The notes beneath the pieces are model-generated. The model did not search any database. It saw only the letters and a program-made list of their open reading frames with translations, and was not told where the DNA came from. This document shows positions 4,479-16,802 of a stretch of 64,000 nucleotides of DNA, in pieces. Each line of letters begins with the position of its first letter. Within the stretch, counting starts at the first letter, position 1. The translations under genes were made by a program, and so were the position numbers. This stretch comes from an uncultured bacterium (GTDB lineage: Bacteria; Acidobacteriota; Aminicenantia; Aminicenantales; Aminicenantaceae). The stretch is taken from the NCBI GenBank assembly GCA_965533275.1, contig CBESWG010000006.1, forward strand, positions 5,634-69,633. Direction: 5' to 3'.

Positions 4479-7400
4479 TTAATCCTGGTCTGTTCTAACC
4501 CATTTCACTGCATCGGCCGTGAGGAAGGCTCCCTTGCCCTTATCCGTTTGCTCGACCGTGTTCGGTCCAGCGGACAGGCGGAATGTCCCCAGCAGGACCC
4601 AACCCTGGGCTGACTCCTGGATGTCGAAGGGGATCTCCTCGGTGCCGTCCTGGTGGCGTACGATGAAGTGTTTTTCCTCCTGGGTGGGGCGCCGCCGGCG
4701 TCCCTGGTTCCCGCCCCGCTGGCCTTGTCCGCCCCGGCCACCGCCGAAGTTCATGGTTTCGTTGTAGAAATAGATGTCGTAGCTGCCGCTTTCAGGGAGG
4801 TCAACCGTCCAGGAAACGGTGTTGCTGCCCTCCCCGACCTTGATCATGTGGCCGGTACGGAGGATGGTGCCGTAGAAATCCTGTTGAATGACCGGGCTCC
4901 ACCGGCCGGGAGGGTTGGTGGGATTGTAATCCAGATACTCCGTTTCTGTGCCCGAGCGGTCAAAGAGCCGGAGGATGGCCGTCCGGAGCCGGCTATCCCC
5001 CCCGCCCCCGGACACAGCGAATCCCGGATCCTCGTTGTCAACGATGTATTCCCCCTCATCGGTCTGTCTGTCTGCATCATAGGGGAAGGTCCGCTCCCCT
5101 TCGAAGAACGTCTCCGCATCCTCCGCGTTCTGCCTCATCATCATGAGGTTCATGGTGGCGGGAATGTTTTGGGAGATGGTTGTGTCCACCGTGAGCAGCA
5201 TGGGCCGGCTGTCCAGAAGAACGCCGATCTCTGTGGTGGTGTTCGGTGGGATGAGGACGGTGCGCTCGATCCCGGATGGAGCTCCTCCTCCCATTCTATC
5301 CCGTCCTCCTCGTCCCTCTATAATGTTGAGCTTGACGATCCCCTCGGCATCGGAAATGTTGGAGACGGGCAGGAGGATATGCGTGCGCTGCTGCTCTCCA
5401 TCCTGGACATTGTACATGCCCACCGCACCCAGGGTGAACGCCGGCACCTGTTTATCCGCATACCAGGCGGCCATCACAGGTTCCAGGTCGAATTCCTTGT
5501 AGGCGAAGAGGAATTGGAGAAAATCTTCTTCCGAGATGGTGCTGAATTTTTTCTCTTTGATGAAGGAGAGGAGCTTTTCGTCGAAGTTGTCTTCCTGAAT
5601 GCGGGATTCGATGGCGGTCATCAGATATTTACCCTTGGCCAGGATGACATCGTAGAGCTGGTCAGGATCCAGGCTTTCATCTTCCAGGAGCTCGGTCATG
5701 GAGTTTCCGTCCAGCAGGCGGTTGATCCTTTCCTGTTCGGTCATGCCGCCGCTCCGGTTGAAGCGGAAGCTGGTGGCGGAGATCCGGTCCTGTAGCCAGG
5801 ACTCGAGGGCCGAGTGGAGGATGGGCCAGCGGTCCGAAGCCAGGGTCGCAGTGAATGCAAAATAGTTCGGTAAAAGGTTGTATTTCGCATCTATATCGGA
5901 TTCCGTCACGCTGGAAAGGGCGTTGTCGCGAAAGCCTCCCTGGCCAGGCTGGGAACCGAGGAGGTTGCTGCGGACAAAGCGCGTGAAATAACTGTTTTGG
6001 ATCTGGGCGGATGTGATCTCCATCCCTGCGCGCGCACTGCGTCCCATTCTTCTCTGCATCATCCGCGACATGGATGCGAAGTCCGCTCCTTGGCACAGAG
6101 TCCCCATCTCCGGCAGAAAAACCGCCTGGGGCTGTACGGTTTCATCGGCCGCACTCCAGAGACGCTTGTGGCTGTAGAAATGGATGGGGACCTCCACCAG
6201 CGCCAGCTTTGTGAAGGGATAATCCAATCCGAGGATGACCTCGAATTCGTCCTTCAACTGGGTGATGGTCTTGGGCAGGTCTTCGGTGATGGCATCGAAA
6301 TACTGGGTGAAGTAATCATGCCCCGGAAGCGTGTAAAGCGTATACTCGACATCTTCGACCTTGAGAGACCTCTCCTCAAAGGGCCCGACTGTCAAGGAGA
6401 TCTGAGGCAGAGGTGTCCCGGGGCGGAAGGCGTAGACTTTGCCGCCGTCAGATGTTGTGATCTCAGACGGGCCCTGGGATACGGCGGTGCGGCCCTCGGG
6501 CACACGTACACTGAGCGTATACTGCGAGAAATCATGGGCCACCGCTCCGGGGAAGCGGTGACTGAGGGGGATCCCCGCCCGGGGATACCACCCGCATTCC
6601 GGGGTCAGATGGACAAACTTCTCGGATAGGAAGAGATATTTCTTCGGGACATTGTAGAGCCCCAGCTTGGAGGGCTTGCGGAGGCTTTCACTCTCGATAT
6701 CCGGGTAACAGTAGGCCTCCAGCGGAGTCCCGGCATAGTCGATCTGGATGGTGATTCCGGTACCCGGAGCCAGGGGATCCGGCGGCTGGATGAGGAGAAC
6801 GTGTTCCCCCCTGACAAAATCAAGGGGCGAACCGCCGGCAGAGACACGTCTGACCTGGAGCCCCGGATTCAGGGTCAGGAGCAGGGATTCAGCGGGCTCC
6901 TCGAGGTCGTTTTTGAGAACGATCTCCGCAGCAGCCGACAGGGTTTTGCCGGAATACTCCACATTCAGGAAACAGGATTCCATGTTCAGTGCGGGAAGCT
7001 CGGCATATTCCCGGCTCTCTGCCAGAAGGTCGCGGCGAAGGGAATCGACGCTCCGGTTGGACTGGATATGGACAAATATGAGGCCAAGAGCCGAGAGGAT
7101 GAGCAGAGCAGACAGGACCCCGGACAGGGCCGTGGTGAAAGCCGATTGCCGGAGCCGCTTGGCCAGGAGCACCGTGCCGAAGACGAATCCCAAACCCAGG
7201 AGGAGGATTGGAAGCCGCAGCAGCAGAAGCTGTGCGCTGTTGCCCAGTCCCATAAAATCGGAATACATCAGCGGCGTGTGGAAACCGAATATGTCGAGGA
7301 TGAAGTCGGCCTTGTTCCCAATGGCGATCAGGCTGAGGGCGGACACGGCCAGGCCCATCAGTATGACGGCTGCCTGGCTACGGATGACCACCCCCAGGAC

Positions 7401-7898
7401 AAAGGCCATGCCGATGAGGAACACCAATGTGGGGAGGATGAGTGCCAGGAAATAGAGGAAGTAGGCCTGGATGTTCAGGGGAGTCTCTGATAGAAACAGG
7501 TGGATGAGAATGGTGATGATGCCGACAAGGATGTTCATCAGGACAAAGAGACCGAGCACTCCCAGGAACTTGCCGAGGAGATAGCTGGTGTTTGAAAAGG
7601 ACCGGGCGAAGATGACCTGGGTGGAATCCGTCCTCCTGTCCCGTTTGAAGAACTCCGTGGCCATGAAGACAACGATGATGCCCTGGTAGACATTGAAGAG
7701 CTTGAAGCTGAACAGCGGGATCGAACCCGAAAGGGACCGGAAGTAGTAGGGGAAAGCAAAGGAGGGGGCCGCGGCGCCGGCCGTAAACAGGCCCAGAAGA
7801 ATGAAACCCAGCAGCGCGAATATCCGGAATCCCCAGGACCTCAGCAAAAGCCTGGCCTCATAGACGGCGATTTTCAGGCAGATCATTACAGGTGTCAT
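4479..7898 (-). CDS. ABC-2 type transporter permease (N-terminal ~290 aa, multi-TM) fused to an ~850-aa extracytoplasmic domain of unknown function; C-terminal beta-sandwich-like module
   Basis: 1139-aa ORF. The N-terminus holds about 7 hydrophobic helices typical of ABC-2 permeases. The large hydrophilic remainder has no HExxH or GxMEN, so it is not a catalytic M1 peptidase. A Gly/Arg-rich linker GGGRGGQGQRGGNQGRRRRP is followed by a terminal domain ending ...FLTADAVKWV. The start overlaps the ATPase stop (ATGA). Confidence 0.8.
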   Translation of the reverse strand: MTPVMICLKIAVYEARLLLRSWGFRIFALLGFILLGLFTAGAAAPSFAFPYYFRSLSGSIPLFSFKLFNVYQGIIVVFMATEFFKRDRRTDSTQVIFARSFSNTSYLLGKFLGVLGLFVLMNILVGIITILIHLFLSETPLNIQAYFLYFLALILPTLVFLIGMAFVLGVVIRSQAAVILMGLAVSALSLIAIGNKADFILDIFGFHTPLMYSDFMGLGNSAQLLLLRLPILLLGLGFVFGTVLLAKRLRQSAFTTALSGVLSALLILSALGLIFVHIQSNRSVDSLRRDLLAESREYAELPALNMESCFLNVEYSGKTLSAAAEIVLKNDLEEPAESLLLTLNPGLQVRRVSAGGSPLDFVRGEHVLLIQPPDPLAPGTGITIQIDYAGTPLEAYCYPDIESESLRKPSKLGLYNVPKKYLFLSEKFVHLTPECGWYPRAGIPLSHRFPGAVAHDFSQYTLSVRVPEGRTAVSQGPSEITTSDGGKVYAFRPGTPLPQISLTVGPFEERSLKVEDVEYTLYTLPGHDYFTQYFDAITEDLPKTITQLKDEFEVILGLDYPFTKLALVEVPIHFYSHKRLWSAADETVQPQAVFLPEMGTLCQGADFASMSRMMQRRMGRSARAGMEITSAQIQNSYFTRFVRSNLLGSQPGQGGFRDNALSSVTESDIDAKYNLLPNYFAFTATLASDRWPILHSALESWLQDRISATSFRFNRSGGMTEQERINRLLDGNSMTELLEDESLDPDQLYDVILAKGKYLMTAIESRIQEDNFDEKLLSFIKEKKFSTISEEDFLQFLFAYKEFDLEPVMAAWYADKQVPAFTLGAVGMYNVQDGEQQRTHILLPVSNISDAEGIVKLNIIEGRGGRDRMGGGAPSGIERTVLIPPNTTTEIGVLLDSRPMLLTVDTTISQNIPATMNLMMMRQNAEDAETFFEGERTFPYDADRQTDEGEYIVDNEDPGFAVSGGGGDSRLRTAILRLFDRSGTETEYLDYNPTNPPGRWSPVIQQDFYGTILRTGHMIKVGEGSNTVSWTVDLPESGSYDIYFYNETMNFGGGRGGQGQRGGNQGRRRRPTQEEKHFIVRHQDGTEEIPFDIQESAQGWVLLGTFRLSAGPNTVEQTDKGKGAFLTADAVKWVRTDQD

Positions 7899-8818
7899 GG
7901 CTTTCCCCCATTCCCTCTATCAAACGCACCGGACAGGCGCCCCGAGGCCGCCTTCTGCATGTAATGTATATAGGCGTCTTCCAGATTGGGTTCAACCGGA
8001 ACAGCCTCGGGCGTATCCGGATCCTCCGCAACGATCCTCAGCTCGTATCCGCCCTCGGAGGGGACCGTGGAGATCACCGGGAAACGTTCTTTCCAGCTGT
8101 CCAGATCTTCATAACCCGTGGAGATGGACCAGACTTTTCCCCGGGCGCTGTCCACCAGGTCGGACGGGGCACCATGAAAAATGACGCGTCCCAGGTCCAT
8201 GAGAGCGATGGTCTCACAGGTCGAGGAGATGTCGCCCACGATGTGGGTGGAAAGGAGGATGATCCGGTCCTGGGTGGACAGGTCGGACATGAGGTTGCGG
8301 AACCGGATCCGCTCCTCGGGATCCAGGCCGACCGTGGGTTCGTCCACGACCAGTAGCGGGGGGTCTCCGATCAGGGTCTGGGCGATCCCCAGCCTCCGCT
8401 TCATGCCGCCGGAAAGCTTCCCGGTCAGGCGGTCCCGCGCCTCGAACAAGCCCACGGCTTCCAGCAGTGTATCGATCCTGTCCCGCCTCTGATTCTTGGA
8501 CAGGATGCCATTGAGGCAGGCGCTGTAGTCCATGAACTCCCAGACTGTCAGCCTGGAGAACACGGAAAAGGCCTGAGGAAGATATCCGATCTGCTTGCGG
8601 ATTTCCTTGCGGTTCTTGCGGATGTCCAGATTATCGATCTTGACCTGGCCGGAGCTGGGCTTCAGCAGCGTGACCAGGATGCGCATCAGGGTGGTCTTTC
8701 CGGCGCCATTGGGCCCCAGCAGACCGAACAATCCTTTGGGGATGTCTAGGTCTATATCTTTGAGAGCCAGTTTACCGCCGCGATAACGTTTGGAAAGTTG
8801 AGATACAGAGATTTGCAT
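7895..8818 (-). CDS. ABC transporter ATP-binding protein
   Basis: Walker A GPNGAGKTT, ABC signature LSGGMKRR, Walker B LLVVDEPT. It is translationally coupled to the downstream permease-fusion gene. Confidence 0.92.
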   Translation of the reverse strand: MQISVSQLSKRYRGGKLALKDIDLDIPKGLFGLLGPNGAGKTTLMRILVTLLKPSSGQVKIDNLDIRKNRKEIRKQIGYLPQAFSVFSRLTVWEFMDYSACLNGILSKNQRRDRIDTLLEAVGLFEARDRLTGKLSGGMKRRLGIAQTLIGDPPLLVVDEPTVGLDPEERIRFRNLMSDLSTQDRIILLSTHIVGDISSTCETIALMDLGRVIFHGAPSDLVDSARGKVWSISTGYEDLDSWKERFPVISTVPSEGGYELRIVAEDPDTPEAVPVEPNLEDAYIHYMQKAASGRLSGAFDRGNGGKP

Positions 8819-9044: not shown

Positions 9045-10052
9045 ATGACCGTACTCCTGATCCTATGCCTTCTATTGGCTCCCGTCTCGAGCGCTGCCGG
9101 TCACAGCCCTCCCGAGTCCGATCGCCTGAAAACGGTCCAAAGCCTCAAGAAGCTGGACGATTTCCCCTTGTATTCGATGCGTTTCTATGGCGATTACGAT
9201 CTCCCGGATATCGCTTCCAAGGCTTCGCTTCCCCTGAAGATACGGCAGGGGTATCAGCCGGTCAATTCAACATTGTGGGGCTGCACCTGCTTTTCCACGA
9301 AGACCAGGCAGGGAAGCCGGCTTCTCGGCAGAAACTTCGACTGGGAGGACCATCCTGCCCTTCTTTTATTTACGGACCCTCCCAGCAGGTACGCATCCGT
9401 GTCCATGGTGGATATCTCGTATTTGGGCTATTCGAAGATTGACTCTCCGGAAAAGAATCCTGGGGGACTGCTGCAGTCGCCCCTGCTCCCCTTCGACGGG
9501 ATGAACGAACGGGGATTGGCCGTCGGTATGATGGCCCTGCCTGCCGCACATCCGGCAGACGATCCAGAAAAACAAACCGTGGGCAGCCTTATGGTGATCC
9601 GGCTGGTGCTGGATCATGCAAAAGATGTAGATGAGGCCATTGCCCTTTTCGGGGCCGTCAACATCGATTTTCGGGGGGGGCCTCCCCTCCACTATTTCAT
9701 CGTGGATAGATCGGGGAGATCGGTCGTGGTTGAATTTGTGAACCGGAAACTGTCTGTGCTCCCCAATACCCTATCCTGGCAGGTGGCTACCAACTTTACT
9801 CTGACAGGTCTATCCCCGGAGAACGCACGGGCATCCTGCTGGAGATACAAGACGGTCTGGGATGCGATCGCAGATCAGGGGGCTGTCCCCTCTCCTGCCG
9901 CGGCACTCTCGCTCCTGGAAAGCATCTCCCAGCGAAACACCATCTGGTCGGTTGTATACGACACGTCCTCTTTGAACTTCCAGGTGGTCATGGGGAAAAA
10001 CTACGGCCGGGTGCACGAATTCAACCTGAAAACGGGCCCTGACCAGGAATAG
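9045..10052 (+). CDS. Secreted Ntn-hydrolase, choloylglycine hydrolase / C45 acyltransferase-like family (linear amide C-N hydrolase)
   Basis: Signal peptide present. A candidate autoproteolytic Gly-Cys site is WGCTCFS. The RNFDW and GMNERGLAVG motifs resemble the bile-salt hydrolase / penicillin V acylase family. Confidence 0.7.
   Translation: MTVLLILCLLLAPVSSAAGHSPPESDRLKTVQSLKKLDDFPLYSMRFYGDYDLPDIASKASLPLKIRQGYQPVNSTLWGCTCFSTKTRQGSRLLGRNFDWEDHPALLLFTDPPSRYASVSMVDISYLGYSKIDSPEKNPGGLLQSPLLPFDGMNERGLAVGMMALPAAHPADDPEKQTVGSLMVIRLVLDHAKDVDEAIALFGAVNIDFRGGPPLHYFIVDRSGRSVVVEFVNRKLSVLPNTLSWQVATNFTLTGLSPENARASCWRYKTVWDAIADQGAVPSPAAALSLLESISQRNTIWSVVYDTSSLNFQVVMGKNYGRVHEFNLKTGPDQE
9673..9680 (+). 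repeat. G8 homopolymer inside the Ntn-hydrolase coding sequence (encodes FRGGPP)
   Basis: tcgggggggg cc, read directly from the sequence. Confidence 0.9.
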
Positions 10053-10202
10053 AGCTTCCGGCTCTAATGGAGCCTGCTTCTTTTTCCGAGCTGTCGACTG
10101 AAAGAAAAATCCTCTGTAAAATATCCGGCCAATGTCATATCCTATATTCTCGAGAAAAGCCATATTTATAACCCTAAGAGGATTTATCAGGAGGCAGCCC
10201 AC

Positions 10203-11732
10203 ATGAAAACAAAATATCCGAGCAAGATATCGTGTTGTGCGGCTTTATCCCTATTGATGTTCGTAGCAGCTTTGTTTACAGGCTGTGAACGCGGTTCTCT
10301 CTCCTCCGATCTTCCTGAGAAGATCACGGTCATGCAGTCCTCCGTATCACTCGGAGATCCTCATATCTGCAGCGACTCGGGAAACCGGCTGAGTCTCATA
10401 TTCACCGTATATGAAGCCCTCGTCAGACTGGACAACGAAGGAAACTACCGAGCCTCCCTGGCGAAAAGCTGGGATGTTGCGGAAGACAGGCGCACCTGGA
10501 CATTCAGCCTCCGCAGCGGAGTGAAATTCCACAACGGCGATGTTTTGGATGCTGAAGACGTGGTGGCCACTCTGGGGCGGGTATTGGACCCGGCGATCGG
10601 TGGGGCCTTTGGTACCCAAGGCGTCTACCTAAGCTATCTCGAAACCGCCGAGATCTCTGCACCCGATAACATGAGCGTGCTGATAAAGACCGAAGAGCCC
10701 ATGGCCGATCTCCTGGATCTCCTGGTCGCCATGCCCATCAGCCCCGAGAGCGAGCTGGACAAGCTGCCCCATGAGTATGTGGGGAGTGGGCCCTATCAGA
10801 TCGCGGAACAGAACGAAAAGGAGACGATCCTCAAGGCACATGATGAATATTGGGGAAAGCCGCCAGCCTATAGAGAGATACGCTGGATAGCGGAGAGCAC
10901 CGCAGAGAAACGTGTGCAAAGTTTGCTGAACGGACAGGCGGACATCATCTCAGGGATCAGCGTTAAGGATGCTGAAAAGATAAAGCAACGTGAGGGGGCT
11001 GCGGTCCATGATCTTGAGAGCGGCTTGTGCATCATCTTCATGTGCAACTCCCAGAAGGGGCCTTTAATGGACCGGCGTGTCCGGCAGGCATTGAACTATG
11101 CTCTGGACATAGACAAGATCATCAAGGAAATCAAGCAGGGAGCCGCAACACCCCTGAACGGGTACCTTACAGCCCATCACTTTGGTTACAATCCGGAGAC
11201 ACAGCCCTATCCTTATGACCCGGAGAAGGCCCGCAGCCTCCTTTCCGAGGCTGGATACAGCGAAGGATTGGAGCTCGTCTTCGATATCCCAGCGGCCATG
11301 CCCGACGAAGCGCCGCAGCTGGCACAAAAAATGAGGGAACAATTCAGCCAGGTGGGGATCACCCTGGACATCGTCGAGCATCAGGACAGGGCTGCTTACT
11401 CGGAGATGGTCAGAGAGAAGAACATCAACGACGCATGCTGTTTTGACTCGAGTCCACGAAGTACCTATCGAGTGCTGCGCGAGAAACTCCAGTCGACCCT
11501 GGAGGGCCCCTGGTGGCAGGGATACGAAAACGCAGAGGTGAATGCCCTGATCAAACAGGCCGAGGCGACTTTCGATAACACGGAGAGACAGAAGATCTAT
11601 CGGCAGATCTACACGATCGTCCGGGACGATGCGCCTTGGATATTTCTTTACCGGCCAACACGCTACTACGGTGTCAATTCGACCATGAAGGATTGGGCAC
11701 TCAGAACGGACGGCCTGCTTATTTTTGACTAG
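10203..11732 (+). CDS. ABC transporter substrate-binding protein, family 5 (peptide/nickel/opine type), lipoprotein; orphan, with no permease or ATPase adjacent
   Basis: 509 aa with a lipobox FTGC. It carries the SBP_bac_5-type signature region ...LAKSWDVAEDRRTWTFSLRSGVKFHNGDVLDAEDVV. Confidence 0.85.
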   Translation: MKTKYPSKISCCAALSLLMFVAALFTGCERGSLSSDLPEKITVMQSSVSLGDPHICSDSGNRLSLIFTVYEALVRLDNEGNYRASLAKSWDVAEDRRTWTFSLRSGVKFHNGDVLDAEDVVATLGRVLDPAIGGAFGTQGVYLSYLETAEISAPDNMSVLIKTEEPMADLLDLLVAMPISPESELDKLPHEYVGSGPYQIAEQNEKETILKAHDEYWGKPPAYREIRWIAESTAEKRVQSLLNGQADIISGISVKDAEKIKQREGAAVHDLESGLCIIFMCNSQKGPLMDRRVRQALNYALDIDKIIKEIKQGAATPLNGYLTAHHFGYNPETQPYPYDPEKARSLLSEAGYSEGLELVFDIPAAMPDEAPQLAQKMREQFSQVGITLDIVEHQDRAAYSEMVREKNINDACCFDSSPRSTYRVLREKLQSTLEGPWWQGYENAEVNALIKQAEATFDNTERQKIYRQIYTIVRDDAPWIFLYRPTRYYGVNSTMKDWALRTDGLLIFD

Positions 11733-11735
11733 CGA

Positions 11736-14666
11736 TTATTTGTCCCTAGAAATATCAATCGAGGGAAGGAAATTCCCCATGGCCCAAACCTCGTGCCGAT
11801 ACTCAAAACAATCGAAGGCGATGCGTTTTCCGTCGGGGTGGACATCCAGGGAGCTCCACAGCACGCCATACATCATCGGCTGGGGGCGACACAGCTCGCT
11901 CGCCTCCCCTCCTCCTGCAGGAATACGCCACACAGCACTTGGGCGTCCTTGTATATGAGAGTTGCTAAAGAGCAAGAACTGTCCATCCGGAGTCCAATCG
12001 ATCAGGGGATACTGTTTAAGATCTTCGTTCCTGAGCAGTTCCTTGAGCTCCCCCCCCTGTACTGGCATGGTCAAGATATGGTGGACCATACGCATCGGGG
12101 AGTCCCACCGCTCAAAAGTGGCCAGGGCCAGCTGTTGCCCATCTGGCGAAAGGGCAAAGTTCAGGCCTTGGGCGCCCATGGCATTTTCCATGCTGAACAA
12201 GTTCTTTTCCTGATTAGTTTCCATATTCCTGGCCAATAGGCTAGCCTTCCGTGTGCCAGGTTGGAACGCAACATATAACAAAGTTCCGCCATCCTGAGAC
12301 AGCTGCGCAGCACCCAACATAGTAGAATCACTCTGCACAAGGGCCACGCACGCACCTGAATCCACATCCAGGCTGAAAACGGCCTGGGATTTCCTGGCTT
12401 GTAGAGTCGAAATGAGAATAGATTTCCCATCGGATGACCACCGCAGCGAGAAAAAATATGGCAGTTCGGGATCGATTTCGCGCTCCTGGCCCGTTTCCGT
12501 GTCTCGGATATGGATTGTCTGAGAATCATCAGGCCTCTGAATGCCATACGCCAGGTATCGGCCATCAGGCGACCAGGCAGGAGTTACATCCGTTCCTGTT
12601 TGGCCAATGATCTGAGGTTTCGACAACAGCTCGCCTGCCTTCATGTCCACTTCGGCCACAACGGTCTCTATGGTGCTGAATTCAACCGCATAGTAAAAAG
12701 TGCCGTCCCGTGTGATTCCTTTCGGCCGGATCTTGGCGGGGATGTCGCGTTTGATGAGTTCCGGTGCCCCCGACCGCTTACCGTCGGCCACGGGCAGAAG
12801 GTAGGCATCAGAAGTATCCGAAGTGGAGAACGCTCCTGAATAACCCCGTTTGCGGTCACTGGAAAAAAGGAGGTATTTGTTGTCTGGCGTCCAGCCAAAC
12901 AATCTGTCATTAGCGCCATGCCGAACCACATGTTCCGTCTTTTGATTATTTAGATCGAGAATATAAATGTCTCTGTTTTCAGGTTTTCCCTCCTGATGCA
13001 GGTCATATGCGAAGTAGCGTCCATCCGGTGATATCGCCCTCCCCCTTGACCTGCCATTCCAGATAAAATCGAAAACATGGATCACCTGCATGGAGCCGTC
13101 TTCGATAGAGAAGGAAACCAGCTGATCTTGTTCGCCATCCCAAAACCCGCACAGGATCTGTTTCCCATCCGATATCCATGCATGTATCTTGACCTGTTCA
13201 CCTTGTTCAAAGCGATGAAGAGTCCGGTGTCCCGTTCCATCCAGGTTGATCAATTGGAGCTCTGTCTCTGGGGAAGGATAGAACTGGTTCATGTAGGCGA
13301 CAAGCTGGCTGTCGGGAGATATAACAAGGCCCCACATGCCGGCCCTGGAAACTTTGGTCAGCGGTCGGAACTCACCTGTCTCCAGGTCACAAACGACCAT
13401 CTCCGCGATGGTTAATTCGGGCGTCGGCCGGATGTCGCACATGTAGCGCCCGTCCAGAGAAGGCGGCCCCGAGAAGTCGGACATGGGGCCTGTTTTCGCC
13501 CTTCTCAACGAGATGCTGGGTTCAGACTCTGGCAAATAAGAGCTTTGCCTCCCTTCCCCGATGGCAAAAGAAAAAGACACGAAACTCACGGCCAGAATCA
13601 GGAAAACGGCCAGAGGTGACCACTGATAAGAGCTCGTTTTAAATTGGGAGATCATGGTGATCCTCCTTTTTAGCTGTGATTTATTCTCCAATATTCCCGC
13701 CATGGCCGGCAACGGTCGCGACTGGGAGAAGCGGCGCAAGAGCCCGACTATGACTTGTCCATACTCCTGTGATTTTTCTTTTCCCGTCCGTGAAAGGACC
13801 AAAGCATCACAGGAAAGCTCCCGGTCGGCCCGCATTCGGTAGAATGCAAACCAGACCAGGGGGTTGAACCAGTGTAGAATTTGCAGCAGGCTGATCATCC
13901 ATCCCACGTAAATGTCATGGCGTTTGAGGTGGGCCAGCTCATGGAGAAAGACATACTGCAACTCTTCTTGGCTGGCGACCTCGAGCATATCCATCGGCAG
14001 GAGAAGCCGGGGACGGATGAAGCCAAACAGAGCCGGGCTCTTGATCTGGGTGCTGGGTACAAGGCCAACGATCGTCTTGACTCCCATCCGCTCCTTGCAC
14101 TCCTCAAAAAGCTCCAGGGTCTTCTGGGTGAGTAACAGGCGCTCGCGCCTTACGATCCGCCAGAGGAAGAAGTTACTCAGGAGTATATACACACCGATCG
14201 CCAAGGCTCCGGCCAACCAAACAAAAGGCAGTATGCGGCGGAGAGAAGACACCCATGGTTTGGATTTGTTACCAACCTTGGAAAGAATCCCTGGTTTCGA
14301 AACTGATTGCTCCTGCGGTCCGGCAGTCTGCTCCGATCTTGGAAGGCGTTTAGATTCTGCCCTATCGGTTACCTGAGAAGCGAGGAGGGCTTCCTGCCCG
14401 TCAGCACCAACAGAAGCTTGCTGCTCCTGGAACGGCCGATCCAATGAGGGGACAAGGCTGAGAAGATTTACCTGGTTCGGAAAAACGCCGGGCATGACCA
14501 ATCGCAGAACTAGCACAAGCCACAGGGCATGACACCAGCGGGGGCCCAGCTTGCTGCCCAGAATTTTCTGTGCCACAAGAATTAGGCATATGACCAAGCT
14601 TGCGCTCAGGGTCGCCTGCAGGAGCCAGCCAAAAAATGGCTGAAAAGACGTGATTGAAGCTTCCAT
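11736..14666 (-). CDS. BlaR1/MecR1-like M56 peptidase signal transducer fused to a TolB-like (PD40) beta-propeller sensor domain
   Basis: 976 aa. The N-terminal TM helices and the HELAHLKRHD zinc motif match the M56 family. The C-terminal ~600 aa contain at least 8 repeats of the [WS]xPDGxx[LI]A[FY] type: ISPDSQLVAY, ISPDGRYFAY, WTPDNKYLLF, WSPDGRYLAY, WSSDGKSILI, LSPDGQQLAL, WTPDGQFLLF, VHPDGKRIAF. Confidence 0.85.
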   Translation of the reverse strand: MEASITSFQPFFGWLLQATLSASLVICLILVAQKILGSKLGPRWCHALWLVLVLRLVMPGVFPNQVNLLSLVPSLDRPFQEQQASVGADGQEALLASQVTDRAESKRLPRSEQTAGPQEQSVSKPGILSKVGNKSKPWVSSLRRILPFVWLAGALAIGVYILLSNFFLWRIVRRERLLLTQKTLELFEECKERMGVKTIVGLVPSTQIKSPALFGFIRPRLLLPMDMLEVASQEELQYVFLHELAHLKRHDIYVGWMISLLQILHWFNPLVWFAFYRMRADRELSCDALVLSRTGKEKSQEYGQVIVGLLRRFSQSRPLPAMAGILENKSQLKRRITMISQFKTSSYQWSPLAVFLILAVSFVSFSFAIGEGRQSSYLPESEPSISLRRAKTGPMSDFSGPPSLDGRYMCDIRPTPELTIAEMVVCDLETGEFRPLTKVSRAGMWGLVISPDSQLVAYMNQFYPSPETELQLINLDGTGHRTLHRFEQGEQVKIHAWISDGKQILCGFWDGEQDQLVSFSIEDGSMQVIHVFDFIWNGRSRGRAISPDGRYFAYDLHQEGKPENRDIYILDLNNQKTEHVVRHGANDRLFGWTPDNKYLLFSSDRKRGYSGAFSTSDTSDAYLLPVADGKRSGAPELIKRDIPAKIRPKGITRDGTFYYAVEFSTIETVVAEVDMKAGELLSKPQIIGQTGTDVTPAWSPDGRYLAYGIQRPDDSQTIHIRDTETGQEREIDPELPYFFSLRWSSDGKSILISTLQARKSQAVFSLDVDSGACVALVQSDSTMLGAAQLSQDGGTLLYVAFQPGTRKASLLARNMETNQEKNLFSMENAMGAQGLNFALSPDGQQLALATFERWDSPMRMVHHILTMPVQGGELKELLRNEDLKQYPLIDWTPDGQFLLFSNSHIQGRPSAVWRIPAGGGEASELCRPQPMMYGVLWSSLDVHPDGKRIAFDCFEYRHEVWAMGNFLPSIDISRDK

Positions 14667-14668
14667 AT

Positions 14669-15049
14669 TTATTCCCCCTTTTTCTTATCCAGGATCTCCT
14701 GCAGATCTTCTATTTCCTGGGCTGAGAGGTCCGCGTCCTCGAGGAAGGCAGCGAGGGCAGGCGTCTTCGCTCCCTGGTAAACTCGGCGAACAAAAGATTT
14801 TGTCTCGGACTGTATACATTCAGACTCATTGACCGCCGCAGAATAGCGATACCTGTAGCCCTCCTCCGTGATTTGGACGGCGCCTTTTTTCACGAGTCTG
14901 CTGATCAGAGTCTTGATCGTTCTGGGATTCCACTCCACCTCGTCAGAAAGAGCCTCAACAACATCATTTGCTAGCTGAGGGCCGTGTTCCCAAAGCACCT
15001 GCATCACCCTCCACTCTGAATCGCTTATCTTTGGAAGCTTCTTTTTCAT
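14669..15049 (-). CDS. BlaI/MecI/CopY-family transcriptional repressor (penicillinase repressor fold)
   Basis: 126 aa with a winged-helix N-terminus, SDSEWRVMQVLWEHGPQLANDVVEAL. It ends 2 nt before the BlaR1-like gene starts. Confidence 0.85.
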   Translation of the reverse strand: MKKKLPKISDSEWRVMQVLWEHGPQLANDVVEALSDEVEWNPRTIKTLISRLVKKGAVQITEEGYRYRYSAAVNESECIQSETKSFVRRVYQGAKTPALAAFLEDADLSAQEIEDLQEILDKKKGE

Positions 15050-15064
15050 GCTCTCTCCCTCTTG

Positions 15065-15108
15065 ATTACATTTGTAGTCGCGTTAACAAAATATTACGCT
15101 TGTAGTCG
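15065..15108 (-). promoter_or_regulatory. Two 16-bp direct copies of a TACA-N-TGTA-like box upstream of the blaI-like gene; putative autoregulatory operator
   Basis: ATTACATTTGTAGTCG at 15065-15080 and ATTACGCTTGTAGTCG at 15093-15108. The first contains TACA..TGTA, as in BlaI/MecI operators. Confidence 0.4.
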
Positions 15109-15300
15109 TTTGTCAAGGAAAATTCTGAAATTATTTTAAATAAGTGTGAAACATTCATCCCAAATGATTGATTTTGATGGCTTTATGCCATAGACCCATG
15201 CGATCTATGGGGGCTTTGGGCATGGGATATCCCCGGCTGAGCTTCAAAAAATGGCCCGAGCGGAATCCGGCCAAAGTGACCTGGATCTGAGCCGACAGGT

Positions 15301-15738
15301 TCAATACAGGATGTTCTTGAAGTCGAAGGGTGTAGTTCTGTACGTATCCCAGATCTTCCGGGCTTCTTCGTCCGCCCATTTTTCAAACCCCAGCTTCTTC
15401 ATCATGCAGAGCTGATACATCTTGGTGTTGTGCGGATAATGGGCTTTATCTGCGTAGGGCTGGAACCGCTCGCAGGGGAATTCGTCACATTCATGGCAGA
15501 ATTCCACGTTTTTCCCGGCCGCGCAAGTGAAGATCCTGCATTGCACATCCGGATTCAACACTTTGATCCTGCCCTCCTGGGCTCTGCATCCTTCACAGGC
15601 CGCCTTATCCTCAGGGACATTGAGAGCTTCGGACACCCGTTTCCTGATCTCCGGGTTCGACGATGCCATGTATGCCGGACAGTGAAAACAGGGCAGCCCG
15701 CAGGGCGAGGTTAATTGTTTTGCGGTGTTTGTATCCAT
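15301..15738 (-). CDS. Cys-rich small protein, DUF3795-like (putative metal/Fe-S binding)
   Basis: 145 aa with more than 10 Cys in CxxC-type spacing (CGLPCFHCPAY, CEGC, CHECDEFPC). Confidence 0.55.
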   Translation of the reverse strand: MDTNTAKQLTSPCGLPCFHCPAYMASSNPEIRKRVSEALNVPEDKAACEGCRAQEGRIKVLNPDVQCRIFTCAAGKNVEFCHECDEFPCERFQPYADKAHYPHNTKMYQLCMMKKLGFEKWADEEARKIWDTYRTTPFDFKNILY

Positions 15739-15815
15739 CTTTGCTCCGATCGTGAATCAAAGGGTAGAGTCATAGTAGCATATGCAGCACCAGAGTCAAT
15801 TCAGGTTTCTGGACC

Positions 15816-16802
15816 TTATAGCGTTCTCACCAATCGGAATCCTTTATCGATATAGCCGTCGATGCCGTGACCACGTGCTGCCGAGCGGACCCATTTCGCG
15901 CCGGCACTCGTCCAGCCGCCGCTTTTTAGGGTACGGTCATCTATCCTGAGCGAAGAGACTTCGGGTCCCTCGTAATCCGTCACCGTTCCTTTAGGATAGT
16001 CGTCATACCGATCCCAGACCCACTCCCACACGTTCCCGTGCACGTCATAGAGTTTCCAGGGATTGGGCTTCAGGCTGCGCACAGGCCAAGATCGTCCCTT
16101 TTCCATGGGGTTAAACACGGCCACCCTGGCGAGCTTGGGAAGGTCCGAGGCATCGCCTTCGTAGTGGGTTTTCTCTTTGTAGTTTGGCTCACGTATTGAG
16201 AAGGGCCCCGTGGTCCCGGCCCGGGCAAAGTGCTCCCATTCTCCCTCTGTCGGGAGGCGGTAACCATCGGCCGAAAAATCGCAGAAAACAGGACCGGCTT
16301 CGGTAGAGGTTATCGGTGAAGAGAAGGATTCATCCACGTAGTAGCAGCGAGTCAGCCCGTTCTGCAGGGATAAAATGTTAGCAAACAGGATCGCGTCGTA
16401 CCAGCCCACATTCTGGGCCGGATGATCCATTCCTCCGCCGCGCTGGGTGTCCGAGGGATCCGAAGGCAGGCCCGGCTGTTGAGCCTTCAGATCCGCCCAC
16501 ATCTGCCTGGTTAACTCCGTCTCCATGACTGCGAGCGTTCTTGTCAGGATATGAGTGAATGGCACCTCCCTCCAGCTGCCGGGCTCCGTCTCCGGCGATC
16601 CCTGGACAAATCCTTCCGGACCGGTCGCCGGCACGAAGCGCATGTTCCCGACGATCCCGTCTTCGCTGTAGAGCGCCCCAGGCTTGGGAGATTTCGCTGT
16701 GACAGCCCCATGAGGGATCGGTTTCTCCACTGCAAATACGTTGGGCATCACAACCAAAGCTGAGGCAATGAGTACCAAGCCTAGAGATTTCGCTGTGACC
16801 AT
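15816..16802 (-). CDS. Secreted formylglycine-generating-enzyme (FGE-sulfatase/SUMF1) domain protein
   Basis: GYRLPTEGEWEHFARAG and HGNVWEWVWDRY are FGE-domain signatures. The preferred start is the internal ATG at 16802, MVTAKSLGL..., which is preceded by AGGAGG and followed by a signal peptide. The ORF-track start is 16856. Confidence 0.8.
   Translation of the reverse strand: MVTAKSLGLVLIASALVVMPNVFAVEKPIPHGAVTAKSPKPGALYSEDGIVGNMRFVPATGPEGFVQGSPETEPGSWREVPFTHILTRTLAVMETELTRQMWADLKAQQPGLPSDPSDTQRGGGMDHPAQNVGWYDAILFANILSLQNGLTRCYYVDESFSSPITSTEAGPVFCDFSADGYRLPTEGEWEHFARAGTTGPFSIREPNYKEKTHYEGDASDLPKLARVAVFNPMEKGRSWPVRSLKPNPWKLYDVHGNVWEWVWDRYDDYPKGTVTDYEGPEVSSLRIDDRTLKSGGWTSAGAKWVRSAARGHGIDGYIDKGFRLVRTL

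Follow-up and report, generated by a model that had tools for sequence, protein, structure and literature searches.

A 64,000-nucleotide (nt) stretch of DNA from an uncultured bacterium of the family Aminicenantaceae (Acidobacteriota; GenBank assembly GCA_965533275.1, contig CBESWG010000006.1, positions 5,634 to 69,633), hereafter the window, carries two adjacent minus-strand genes, one for a BlaI-like repressor and one for a 976-amino-acid (aa) membrane protein that joins an M56 zinc-protease module to PD40-type beta-propellers. We propose that they probably form a self-repressed, two-gene BlaI/BlaR (M56) signaling operon, in which the propellers would relay a periplasmic cue other than a beta-lactam into proteolytic derepression. 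The pair belongs to PF03965 and PF05569 and is not a canonical BlaR1/MecR1 system (NF000326, NF033108, NF033109), nor is it TolB, tricorn or CopY. Switches of the BlaIR type need just one proteolytic step to convert an extracellular event into gene expression, and they were long viewed as antibiotic-resistance devices. The two genes are as follows.

14669-15049, minus strand: blaI-like repressor gene encoding 126 aa, with a winged-helix N-terminal domain and C-terminal dimerization helices (PF03965, E = 9e-36).
11736-14666, minus strand: M56-propeller gene encoding the 976-aa membrane protein.

The repressor reading frame lies upstream, and only 2 nt (TAA-AT-ATG) separate it from that of the 976-aa protein; the two genes are therefore almost certainly co-transcribed as one transcription unit and possibly translationally coupled. 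Neither has a paralog in the 64-kb window, and an Rfam search of positions 11500-15900 returned no match. NCBI assembly GCA_003704855.1 and ENA metagenome contigs also encode a protein identical to the 976-aa sensor, whose best homologs come from Candidatus Aminicenantes and other Acidobacteriota, then from Planctomycetota.

A first-pass annotation of this sequence had named a BlaI/CopY-fold repressor and an M56 HELAH zinc-protease transducer. Both assignments are borne out, the former by PF03965 and a full-length alignment to MecI and BlaI, the latter by PF05569 and a catalytic set that aligns with that of BlaR1. The 126-aa protein matches Penicillinase_R (PF03965) over residues 8-121, above the 22.6-bit cut-off, and aligns end to end with MecI (1okr; E = 5e-24, residues 3-123) and BlaI (1sd4). 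These alignments place a predicted cleavage site in the repressor.

14744-14749, minus strand: codons of the predicted cleavage site Ala101-Phe102, which aligns with Asn101-Phe102 of Staphylococcus aureus BlaI.

The P1' Phe of BlaI is almost invariant (PMC9834060), and among 90 aligned repressors from related loci position 102 carries Phe in 77 sequences and Leu in another 10. The P1 residue among the aligned repressors is usually Ala or His.

The protease module and its aligned functional elements occupy the first part of the second gene.

13551-14666, minus strand: membrane and M56 zinc-protease module, residues 1-372 (PF05569).
13929-13943, minus strand: HELAH zinc-binding and catalytic motif, residues 242-246 (His242, Glu243, His246).
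13683-13712, minus strand: equivalent of the BlaR1 autocleavage loop, LPAMAGILEN, residues 319-328, followed by KRR at 333-335.

The match to Peptidase_M56 covers residues 15-339 (E = 2e-64; 218 bits against a cut-off of 31). Hydropathy indicates four membrane helices (10-42, 44-63, 144-172 and 347-372) in a BlaR1-like pattern; by homology, therefore, the HEXXH motif would be cytoplasmic, within a predicted gluzincin domain of residues 173-346, and both the loop between helices 2 and 3 (residues 58-143) and the region after residue 372 would be periplasmic. That loop, of about 80-85 residues, is predicted to be disordered (predicted local distance difference test, pLDDT, <35) and is poorly conserved. 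A phmmer alignment of residues 141-356 to residues 101-313 of S. aureus BlaR1 (8exp/8exs; E about 5e-10) pairs His242, Glu243 and His246 with His201, Glu202 and His205 of BlaR1, Glu283 with Glu242, Asp287 and Arg335 with the Asp246-Arg294 salt bridge, and Tyr302 and Ile306 with Tyr261 and Ile265. In BlaR1, the zinc ligands are His201, His205 and Glu242, the salt bridge is Asp246-Arg294', and cis-autocleavage falls at the Ser283-Phe284 bond, which has a hydrophobic P1' (PMC9834060). Gly324-Ile325 aligns with this scissile bond, and its P1' residue, Ile325, is hydrophobic too. Canonical BlaR1 and MecR1 sensors form a domain-swapped dimer and cleave themselves in cis. The low pLDDT over the autocleavage-loop equivalent is as expected of a mobile loop.

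Across 68 homologs that are 44-70% identical overall, HELAH, Glu283, Asp287, Arg335 and Tyr302 are invariant, as are Pro320, Ala323, Ile325, Lys333 and Arg334; the other BlaR1-matched residues and the remainder of LPAMAGILEN...KRR are invariant or nearly so. Such constancy of the HEXXH set argues against the M56 module being a degenerate pseudo-protease that serves as a non-catalytic anti-repressor or membrane anchor. That reading, which draws on M56 proteins without demonstrated proteolysis (e.g., TonB_C fusions), we consider very unlikely.

The remaining 600 aa of the protein form the putative sensor.

12609-13511, minus strand: propeller 1, predicted to be periplasmic, residues ~386-686, six PD40 blades.
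11763-12608, minus strand: propeller 2, predicted to be periplasmic, residues ~687-968, six PD40 blades, ending in W961-x-M-x-N-F-L-P968.

Behind the M56 module, PD40, Peptidase_S9_N and TolB-type profiles match at about residues 450-800, and the identical protein is further annotated with Tricorn_N and Tricorn_2nd (Pfam). The first-pass annotation had suggested modeling the propeller, and an AlphaFold2 monomer model built from the 68-sequence alignment yields a confident fold for residues ~386-968 (block pLDDT mostly 85-95), with only moderate confidence in the membrane part. Strand counting and a recurring [W/S]-x-P-D-G motif locate 12 four-stranded blades, at positions 403, 450, 497, 546, 592 and 650 in propeller 1 and 698, 743, 790, 840, 891 and 943 in propeller 2. 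The first-pass count of at least 8 PD40 repeats was true as a minimum and is otherwise an undercount, as model and motifs together give 12; on the model, we read these as two TolB-like propellers of six blades each. Foldseek matches the model to tricorn (1K32), a similarity at the level of fold with ~14% identity. The C-terminal W-x-M-x-N-F-L-P signature is invariant or nearly so in the 68 homologs.

This domain content contradicts a canonical beta-lactam sensor-transducer (BlaR1/MecR1) governing antibiotic resistance; we rejected that reading and leave it next to no probability. No penicillin-binding domain (PF00905, class-D-like) matches anywhere in the 976-aa protein, the BlaR1 alignment ends at BlaR1 residue 313, and the generic BlaR1 profile (blaR1_generic, NF000326) reaches 203 against a cut-off of 400, matching profile positions 4-323 of 585. 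The C-terminal 600 aa instead fold as PD40 propellers, in agreement with the first-pass claim that they replace the penicillin-binding sensor. Beta-lactam sensing is favored by automatic protein names that include 'beta-lactamase regulating signal transducer', by PF00144 genes that flank the operon in two related loci, and by a nearby N-terminal nucleophile (Ntn) hydrolase of the C45/penicillin-acylase family. The PF00144 neighbor in one of these loci (L085), however, lacks a dyad near its start, and PF00144 neighbors are absent from the window.

The case for self-repression rests on the region upstream of the repressor gene, which holds a predicted promoter and two putative operator boxes.

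15111-15116, minus strand: -35-like hexamer TTGACA, from a promoter scan.
15093-15108, minus strand: distal operator box CGACTACAAGCGTAAT, with the imperfect dyad TACAAGCGTA at 15095-15104; it fills the spacer between the -35 and -10 hexamers.
15088-15093, minus strand: -10-like hexamer TATTTT, a consensus match only, overlapping the last base of the distal box.
15065-15080, minus strand: proximal operator box CGACTACAAATGTAAT, with the perfect dyad TACAAATGTA at 15067-15076; it lies between the -10 hexamer and the ribosome-binding site.
15052-15061, minus strand: Shine-Dalgarno-like purine-rich stretch AGGGAGAGAG, read from the sequence, preceding the blaI-like ATG.

On the coding strand the layout is TTGACA-aa-CGACTACAAGCGTAAT-attttgttaacg-CGACTACAAATGTAAT-caagagggagagagc-ATG, and the scan scores the predicted promoter, TTGACA-17-TATTTT, at 10/12 matches. 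The first-pass annotation had described tandem 16-bp boxes at 15065-15108, 28 bp apart, the first with a TACA/TGTA dyad, and these are real. Their starts are 28 nt apart, they are the only 16-mer matches at up to three mismatches in the window (0.10 expected; 0/100 shuffles gave at least two), and a repeat finder returned them as the sole direct repeat of the intergenic region. The exact dyad TACANNTGTA occurs in the whole window only at 15067-15076, in the proximal box, and its relaxed, one-mismatch form only at 15095-15104, in the distal box. An operator consensus refined by experiment for the CopY/BlaI family, RNYKACANNYGTMRNY (PMC7253601), fits the proximal box at 16/16 positions and the distal box at 15/16; the clade-specific counterpart is GACTACNNNYGTAAT. 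On the plus strand, the proximal box has TACATTTGTAGT in common with the S. aureus mecA operator (PMC1935004).

Related promoters show that this arrangement is the rule. We gathered 80 loci from species-representative genomes by conserved M56 peptide motifs; because the loci were picked by protein motifs and not by DNA, the sampling is unbiased as to the operator. In essentially all 80, the gene immediately upstream of the M56 gene is blaI-like. Counting TACN-NN-NGTA dyads in the upstream 130 nt of the 79 blaI genes with at least that much upstream sequence, 61 promoters have two or more, compared with ~1% of 130-nt windows drawn at random from these loci. In these related loci a dyad sits where the distal box does, and 45 of the 61 promoters have TTGAC 6-10 nt upstream of the distal dyad. 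Start-to-start spacing of the dyads is mostly 22-26 nt (28 nt in two loci and in the window), and the proximal dyad mostly ends 13-16 nt before the start codon. Of the 205 exact dyads present in 1.57 Mb of related DNA, 199 fall within blaI promoters; three of the other six lie at contig ends that truncate blaI. A metagenome scan with the clade-specific tandem box gave 81 matches in the 80 loci analyzed, 74 of them followed by blaI within 120 nt. Contig ends, the opposite strand, a 90-nt insertion and a satellite array account for the rest, and every interpretable metagenomic tandem box precedes a blaI gene.

The conservation of the dyad at blaI promoters forms a strong phylogenetic footprint that backs the tandem TACA/TGTA operators of the first-pass annotation. 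Judged by this footprint, the boxes are real and conserved and very probably act as family-wide autoregulatory operators; in Acidobacteriota, Planctomycetota, Verrucomicrobiota and some Firmicutes, the tandem arrangement is the standard promoter cassette of blaI-M56 operons. The boxes are peculiar neither to this locus nor to the propeller subtype, which corrects the earlier picture. The half-site flanks upstream of blaI (loci L001-L080) form classes, gACTACA, gATTACA and tGTTACA, that co-vary with repressor residues 41-46 (WKPRTIKTL versus WKRETIRTL), and several Planctomycetota and Verrucomicrobiota loci (L011, L012, L029, L075) hold two or three blaI genes; these patterns hint at insulation between paralogous systems. 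In one metagenomic relative (L151:19-230), a GC-rich insertion of ~90 nt separates conserved tandem operators from the blaI start codon. The satellite-like array (L106:4540-4700) has a 26-nt unit, TTGACTACATACGTAATATATCAAAA, that contains an operator-like box with no blaI nearby, and we regard this match as chance or unrelated.

Could the repressor instead be a CopY/TcrY-type metal-responsive protein, released by copper, with the M56 protein uninvolved? The CopY_TcrY profile TIGR02698 does match (E = 2e-31), and both boxes fit the CopY consensus. Yet its score of 109 lies below the cut-off of 121.95, and the C-terminal CxC metal-binding motif (described in PMC7253601) is absent from the repressor, whose sole Cys is residue 77. 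Moreover, the operon has no copper ATPase or chaperone gene, and the coupling to M56 is tight in ~80 loci. We rejected metal sensing on these domain and motif grounds and regard it as extremely improbable; by its sequence features, the repressor is of the protease-controlled and not the copper-controlled type.

Several observations nevertheless weigh against the proposed signaling role. A regulon search of the window, with a position weight matrix from 20 sites of close relatives and with exact and relaxed dyads, found no operator beyond the two known boxes, which score 23.5-28.8 against 10.9 for the next-best site. Likewise, no extra operator lies within 6-10 kb of the M56-propeller operons in ~190 related loci, and the five loci with 10-kb flanks share no gene neighbor. 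With no target operator beyond the operon itself, the regulon of the signaling device is an assumption. At the protein level, P1 of the repressor is Ala or His rather than the Asn of staphylococcal BlaI, and the autocleavage equivalence comes from a single pairwise alignment in a low-confidence region that is poorly conserved in length. Propellers, too, can be scaffolds instead of sensors.

These points bear on an alternative in which the operon is a self-limiting circuit. The M56-propeller protein would itself be the effector, through TolB-like tethering or peptide handling like that of tricorn or dipeptidyl peptidases (DPP), and the protease-repressor pair would tune its amount with no separate regulon. 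Consistent with this, blaI promoters are essentially the sole sites of the operators in the metagenome scan and in the related loci (1.57 Mb), and neither a conserved neighbor nor a second target was found in the window or next to related operons. Furthermore, the 600-aa module with its EVWVMENFLP tail also exists free, as a periplasmic TPR fusion, which suggests a function of its own. On the other hand, the characterized BlaIR, MecIR and CenIR systems control other genes (~12 in the case of CenI), and an intact cytoplasmic protease with a cleavable repressor is hard to explain without a relayed signal. We hold the self-limiting circuit to be unlikely, of low probability, and retain proteolytic derepression by a non-beta-lactam periplasmic cue as the most economical inference. 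Conservation extends to all of the positions for catalysis, autocleavage and repressor cleavage.

One tandem BlaI-type operator in the 1.57 Mb, and only one, does not precede blaI. It lies at L073:1688-1731, on a contig of a Desulfobacteraceae metagenome-assembled genome (CAZFMX010000012.1), and consists of GATTACAAATGTAATT and GATTACAAGCGTAATC at 28-nt spacing upstream of a 230-aa TonB_C-like open reading frame (1767-2459). This frame is immediately downstream of an M56 gene (32-1570) of a different subtype whose C-terminus is similar by eye. The TonB_C-like gene is a candidate for a true regulon member in that other M56 subtype.

In the mechanism that we infer as to DNA binding, proteolysis, topology and signal dependence, repressor dimers would at rest occupy the two TACA-NN-TGTA operators and keep transcription of their own operon low. 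The 976-aa sensor would span the inner membrane four times, with its thermolysin-like zinc protease in the cytoplasm and its two six-bladed, TolB-like propellers (~600 aa) in the periplasm, at the place of the BlaR1 penicillin-binding sensor. By homology, a ligand at the propellers would send a signal through the last membrane helix, and the disordered periplasmic loop 58-143 may take part in activation. The signal would release the autocleavage loop (LPAMAG/ILEN) from the active site, and the protease would then cut the repressor between Ala101 and Phe102, splitting the DNA-binding half from the dimerization half and derepressing the promoter.

As to the ligand, TolB binds Pal and TolA, and the propellers of tricorn and DPP gate peptides. 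Gating of peptides by the tricorn and DPP propellers makes a peptide cue plausible, and by analogy our guess is that the ligand may be a peptide, a protein or a piece of the cell envelope rather than a beta-lactam. More speculatively, the ligand might displace the disordered loop from the propeller face, as in BlaR1, where an extracellular loop occupies the sensor active site until a beta-lactam expels it (PMC9834060).

Relative to the BlaR1/BlaI and MecR1/MecI systems of S. aureus (8EXP-8EXT, 1SD4, 1OKR), the operon shares a repressor with winged-helix and dimerization domains and a P1' Phe, and a four-helix membrane gluzincin of the M56 type that has HEXXH...E, residues for an Asp-Arg salt bridge and an equivalent of the autocleavage loop. 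In both, paired TACA-NN-TGTA dyads lie over the known or predicted promoter and the two genes are adjacent, with autoregulation presumed here. It differs in that two six-bladed PD40 propellers stand in for the acylatable, class-D-beta-lactamase-like domain, the repressor gene comes first, P1 is Ala and not the Asn of BlaI, and the loop between helices 2 and 3 is disordered and about 85 residues long. There is no divergent beta-lactamase or PBP2a target either: no operator-controlled gene of this kind is linked to the operon, whose neighbors are a DUF3795 gene and a convergent SBP_bac_5 gene. Non-canonical BlaIR systems are CenIR of Clostridioides difficile, BlaIR of Mycobacterium tuberculosis and M. 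abscessus, and PvmSR of Pseudomonas aeruginosa, which also combine an M56 protein lacking a transpeptidase or beta-lactam domain with a BlaI-type repressor and whose role is not beta-lactam resistance (PMC13492132; bioRxiv 10.64898/2026.08.03.742534). The extracytoplasmic parts of those sensors are short, unstructured or absent, whereas the protein described here has a large folded double propeller and therefore an obvious surface for binding a ligand or partner.

Resemblance to other propeller proteins is confined to the propellers. Set against TolB and the putative TolB Atu1656 (2OJH), the protein aligns in the propeller only; it lacks the N-terminal, TolA-binding alpha/beta domain of TolB, and in place of the single six-bladed propeller of TolB it carries two in tandem, fused to a membrane protease. 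TIGR02800 (TolB) scores 111 against a cut-off of 343, and no tol-pal genes lie nearby. Tandem PD40-type propellers also occur in tricorn (beta6/beta7) and in prolyl oligopeptidase and DPP-IV, but the present protein has no PDZ/S41 or S9 catalytic domain (neither PDZ_Tricorn nor Peptidase_S41 matches it) and on the model has 6+6 blades, in contrast to 6+7. The extracellular sensor domain of M. tuberculosis PknD (1RWI) has NHL-type repeats, not PD40, and its output is a Ser/Thr kinase and no protease with a repressor.

The M56-propeller combination is common in metagenomes. Among 8000 candidates scored in a full-length search, 2669 proteins reached E <= 0.001, and many of these 2669 may match one domain only; nearly all of the best 120 homologs pair M56 with PD40 or Tricorn-type propellers. 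Hundreds of homologs, from Aminicenantes and Planctomycetota, carry automatic annotations, with names such as 'M56 family metallopeptidase' and 'beta-lactamase regulating signal transducer.../Tol biopolymer transport system component'. Some fusions are longer, at 1500-1630 aa with about twice as many PD40 blades (P0023, P0061, L099:4048-9084, L154:6255-10874, L161:3202-7821), and come mostly from Planctomycetota; they probably hold four propellers behind the same M56 module. Extra propeller matches in L099, L154 and L161 were considered as free paralogs and rejected, being these same M56 fusions.

True free relatives occur at two loci, L084:12964-15123 (minus strand) and L085:15804-17954 (plus strand). 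In these 716-719-aa proteins, a double PD40 propeller is combined with a signal peptide and a TPR region; they are 29% identical to the sensor over the whole 600-aa module and keep the tail EVWVMENFLPK. Their genes adjoin a HisKA kinase/response regulator pair beside the M56 operon. No free TPR-double-propeller gene is present in the window. The next-best relatives are proteins of ~700 aa that match the same propeller families in Pfam and, in many cases, TPR_6. A tentative and rather doubtful proposal is that the double PD40 propeller with its W-x-M-E-N-F-L-P end is a dedicated periplasmic receptor module, reused in two- or four-propeller M56 fusions and in free TPR-propeller proteins beside two-component systems. 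Such a module would recognize a fragment of the cell envelope, a protein or a peptide. The operon would act on unlinked genes with single degenerate operators, or on no transcriptional target but itself.

Among related loci, genes of the PF00144 'Beta-lactamase' family flank the M56-propeller operon at L085:7946-9382, L086:5817-7235 and L087:12932-14314 (all minus strand), representing two organisms. The one in L085/L086 is divergent across a 280-nt spacer, an arrangement that recalls blaZ, and no dyad lies near its start; the PF00144 neighbors are probably coincidental. PF00144 genes and kinase-regulator pairs with free propeller genes each occur in two loci, and both are absent from the window.

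Within the window, the operon is preceded at 251 nt by a gene for a DUF3795 cysteine-rich protein on the same strand (15301-15738, minus strand). A consensus scan found no terminator-like site between this gene and the blaI promoter, so read-through into the blaI-M56 operon is possible. Convergent with the M56 gene, and with only 3 nt between the stop codons, is the gene for a nickel/peptide-type lipoprotein (SBP_bac_5; 10203-11732, plus strand), a solute-binding protein. It follows the gene for the Ntn hydrolase (9045-10052, plus strand), of the C45/choloylglycine-hydrolase family and C45/penicillin-acylase type. No permease genes adjoin this pair (9045-11732), and both genes are convergent with the operon and without an operator, in keeping with the first-pass view that they are not obviously controlled by it. 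Farther away, the gene at 4479-7898 (minus strand), whose 1139-aa product has Golvesin_C at its C-terminus and weakly matches Peptidase_M1, seems to share a transcript with an ABC ATPase gene (7895-8818), an unusual pairing. Overall, peptide-handling genes are abundant in the window and include an S9/DPP-IV peptidase, the orphan peptide-type solute-binding protein and the C45 Ntn hydrolase.

The general principle behind such systems is already known. Kurtz et al. (2026) catalogued ~15,000 M56 proteins in 254 architectures, ~6% of which have a domain that binds beta-lactams and ~96% of which lie within five genes of BlaI, and concluded that BlaIR systems probably sense varied stimuli (PMC13492132). 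The blaI-M56 linkage in our ~80 loci agrees with the 96% figure. The nine architectures with at least 100 entries include those named Ton, TP, M23, Plug, Dac, DUF4825 and Amidase, and PD40 is not named among them (PMC13492132); a literature search that combined M56 with PD40, TolB or propeller turned up no work on the M56-propeller architecture. The principle has been published, and databases already list the proteins by automatic names; the propeller subtype is uncharacterized. Given a common metagenomic architecture and a published principle, the system is less novel than the first-pass annotation implied.

In summary, the gain to be expected is modest: a known signaling family is extended incrementally, without a new principle, by a subtype that is experimentally tractable. 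The M56-propeller subtype is abundant in uncultured sediment lineages (Aminicenantes, Phycisphaerae and Sedimentisphaerales), and its promoter-operator cassette, being compact and highly conserved, could be used as a portable reporter. A large sensor that is confidently predicted to fold, and whose clear structural relatives bind proteins and peptides, is a better start for finding a non-antibiotic signal than sensors that are short or disordered. If the double propeller is a dedicated receptor module, the operon would be the first one-step proteolytic pathway for envelope or peptide sensing in Acidobacteriota and Planctomycetota.

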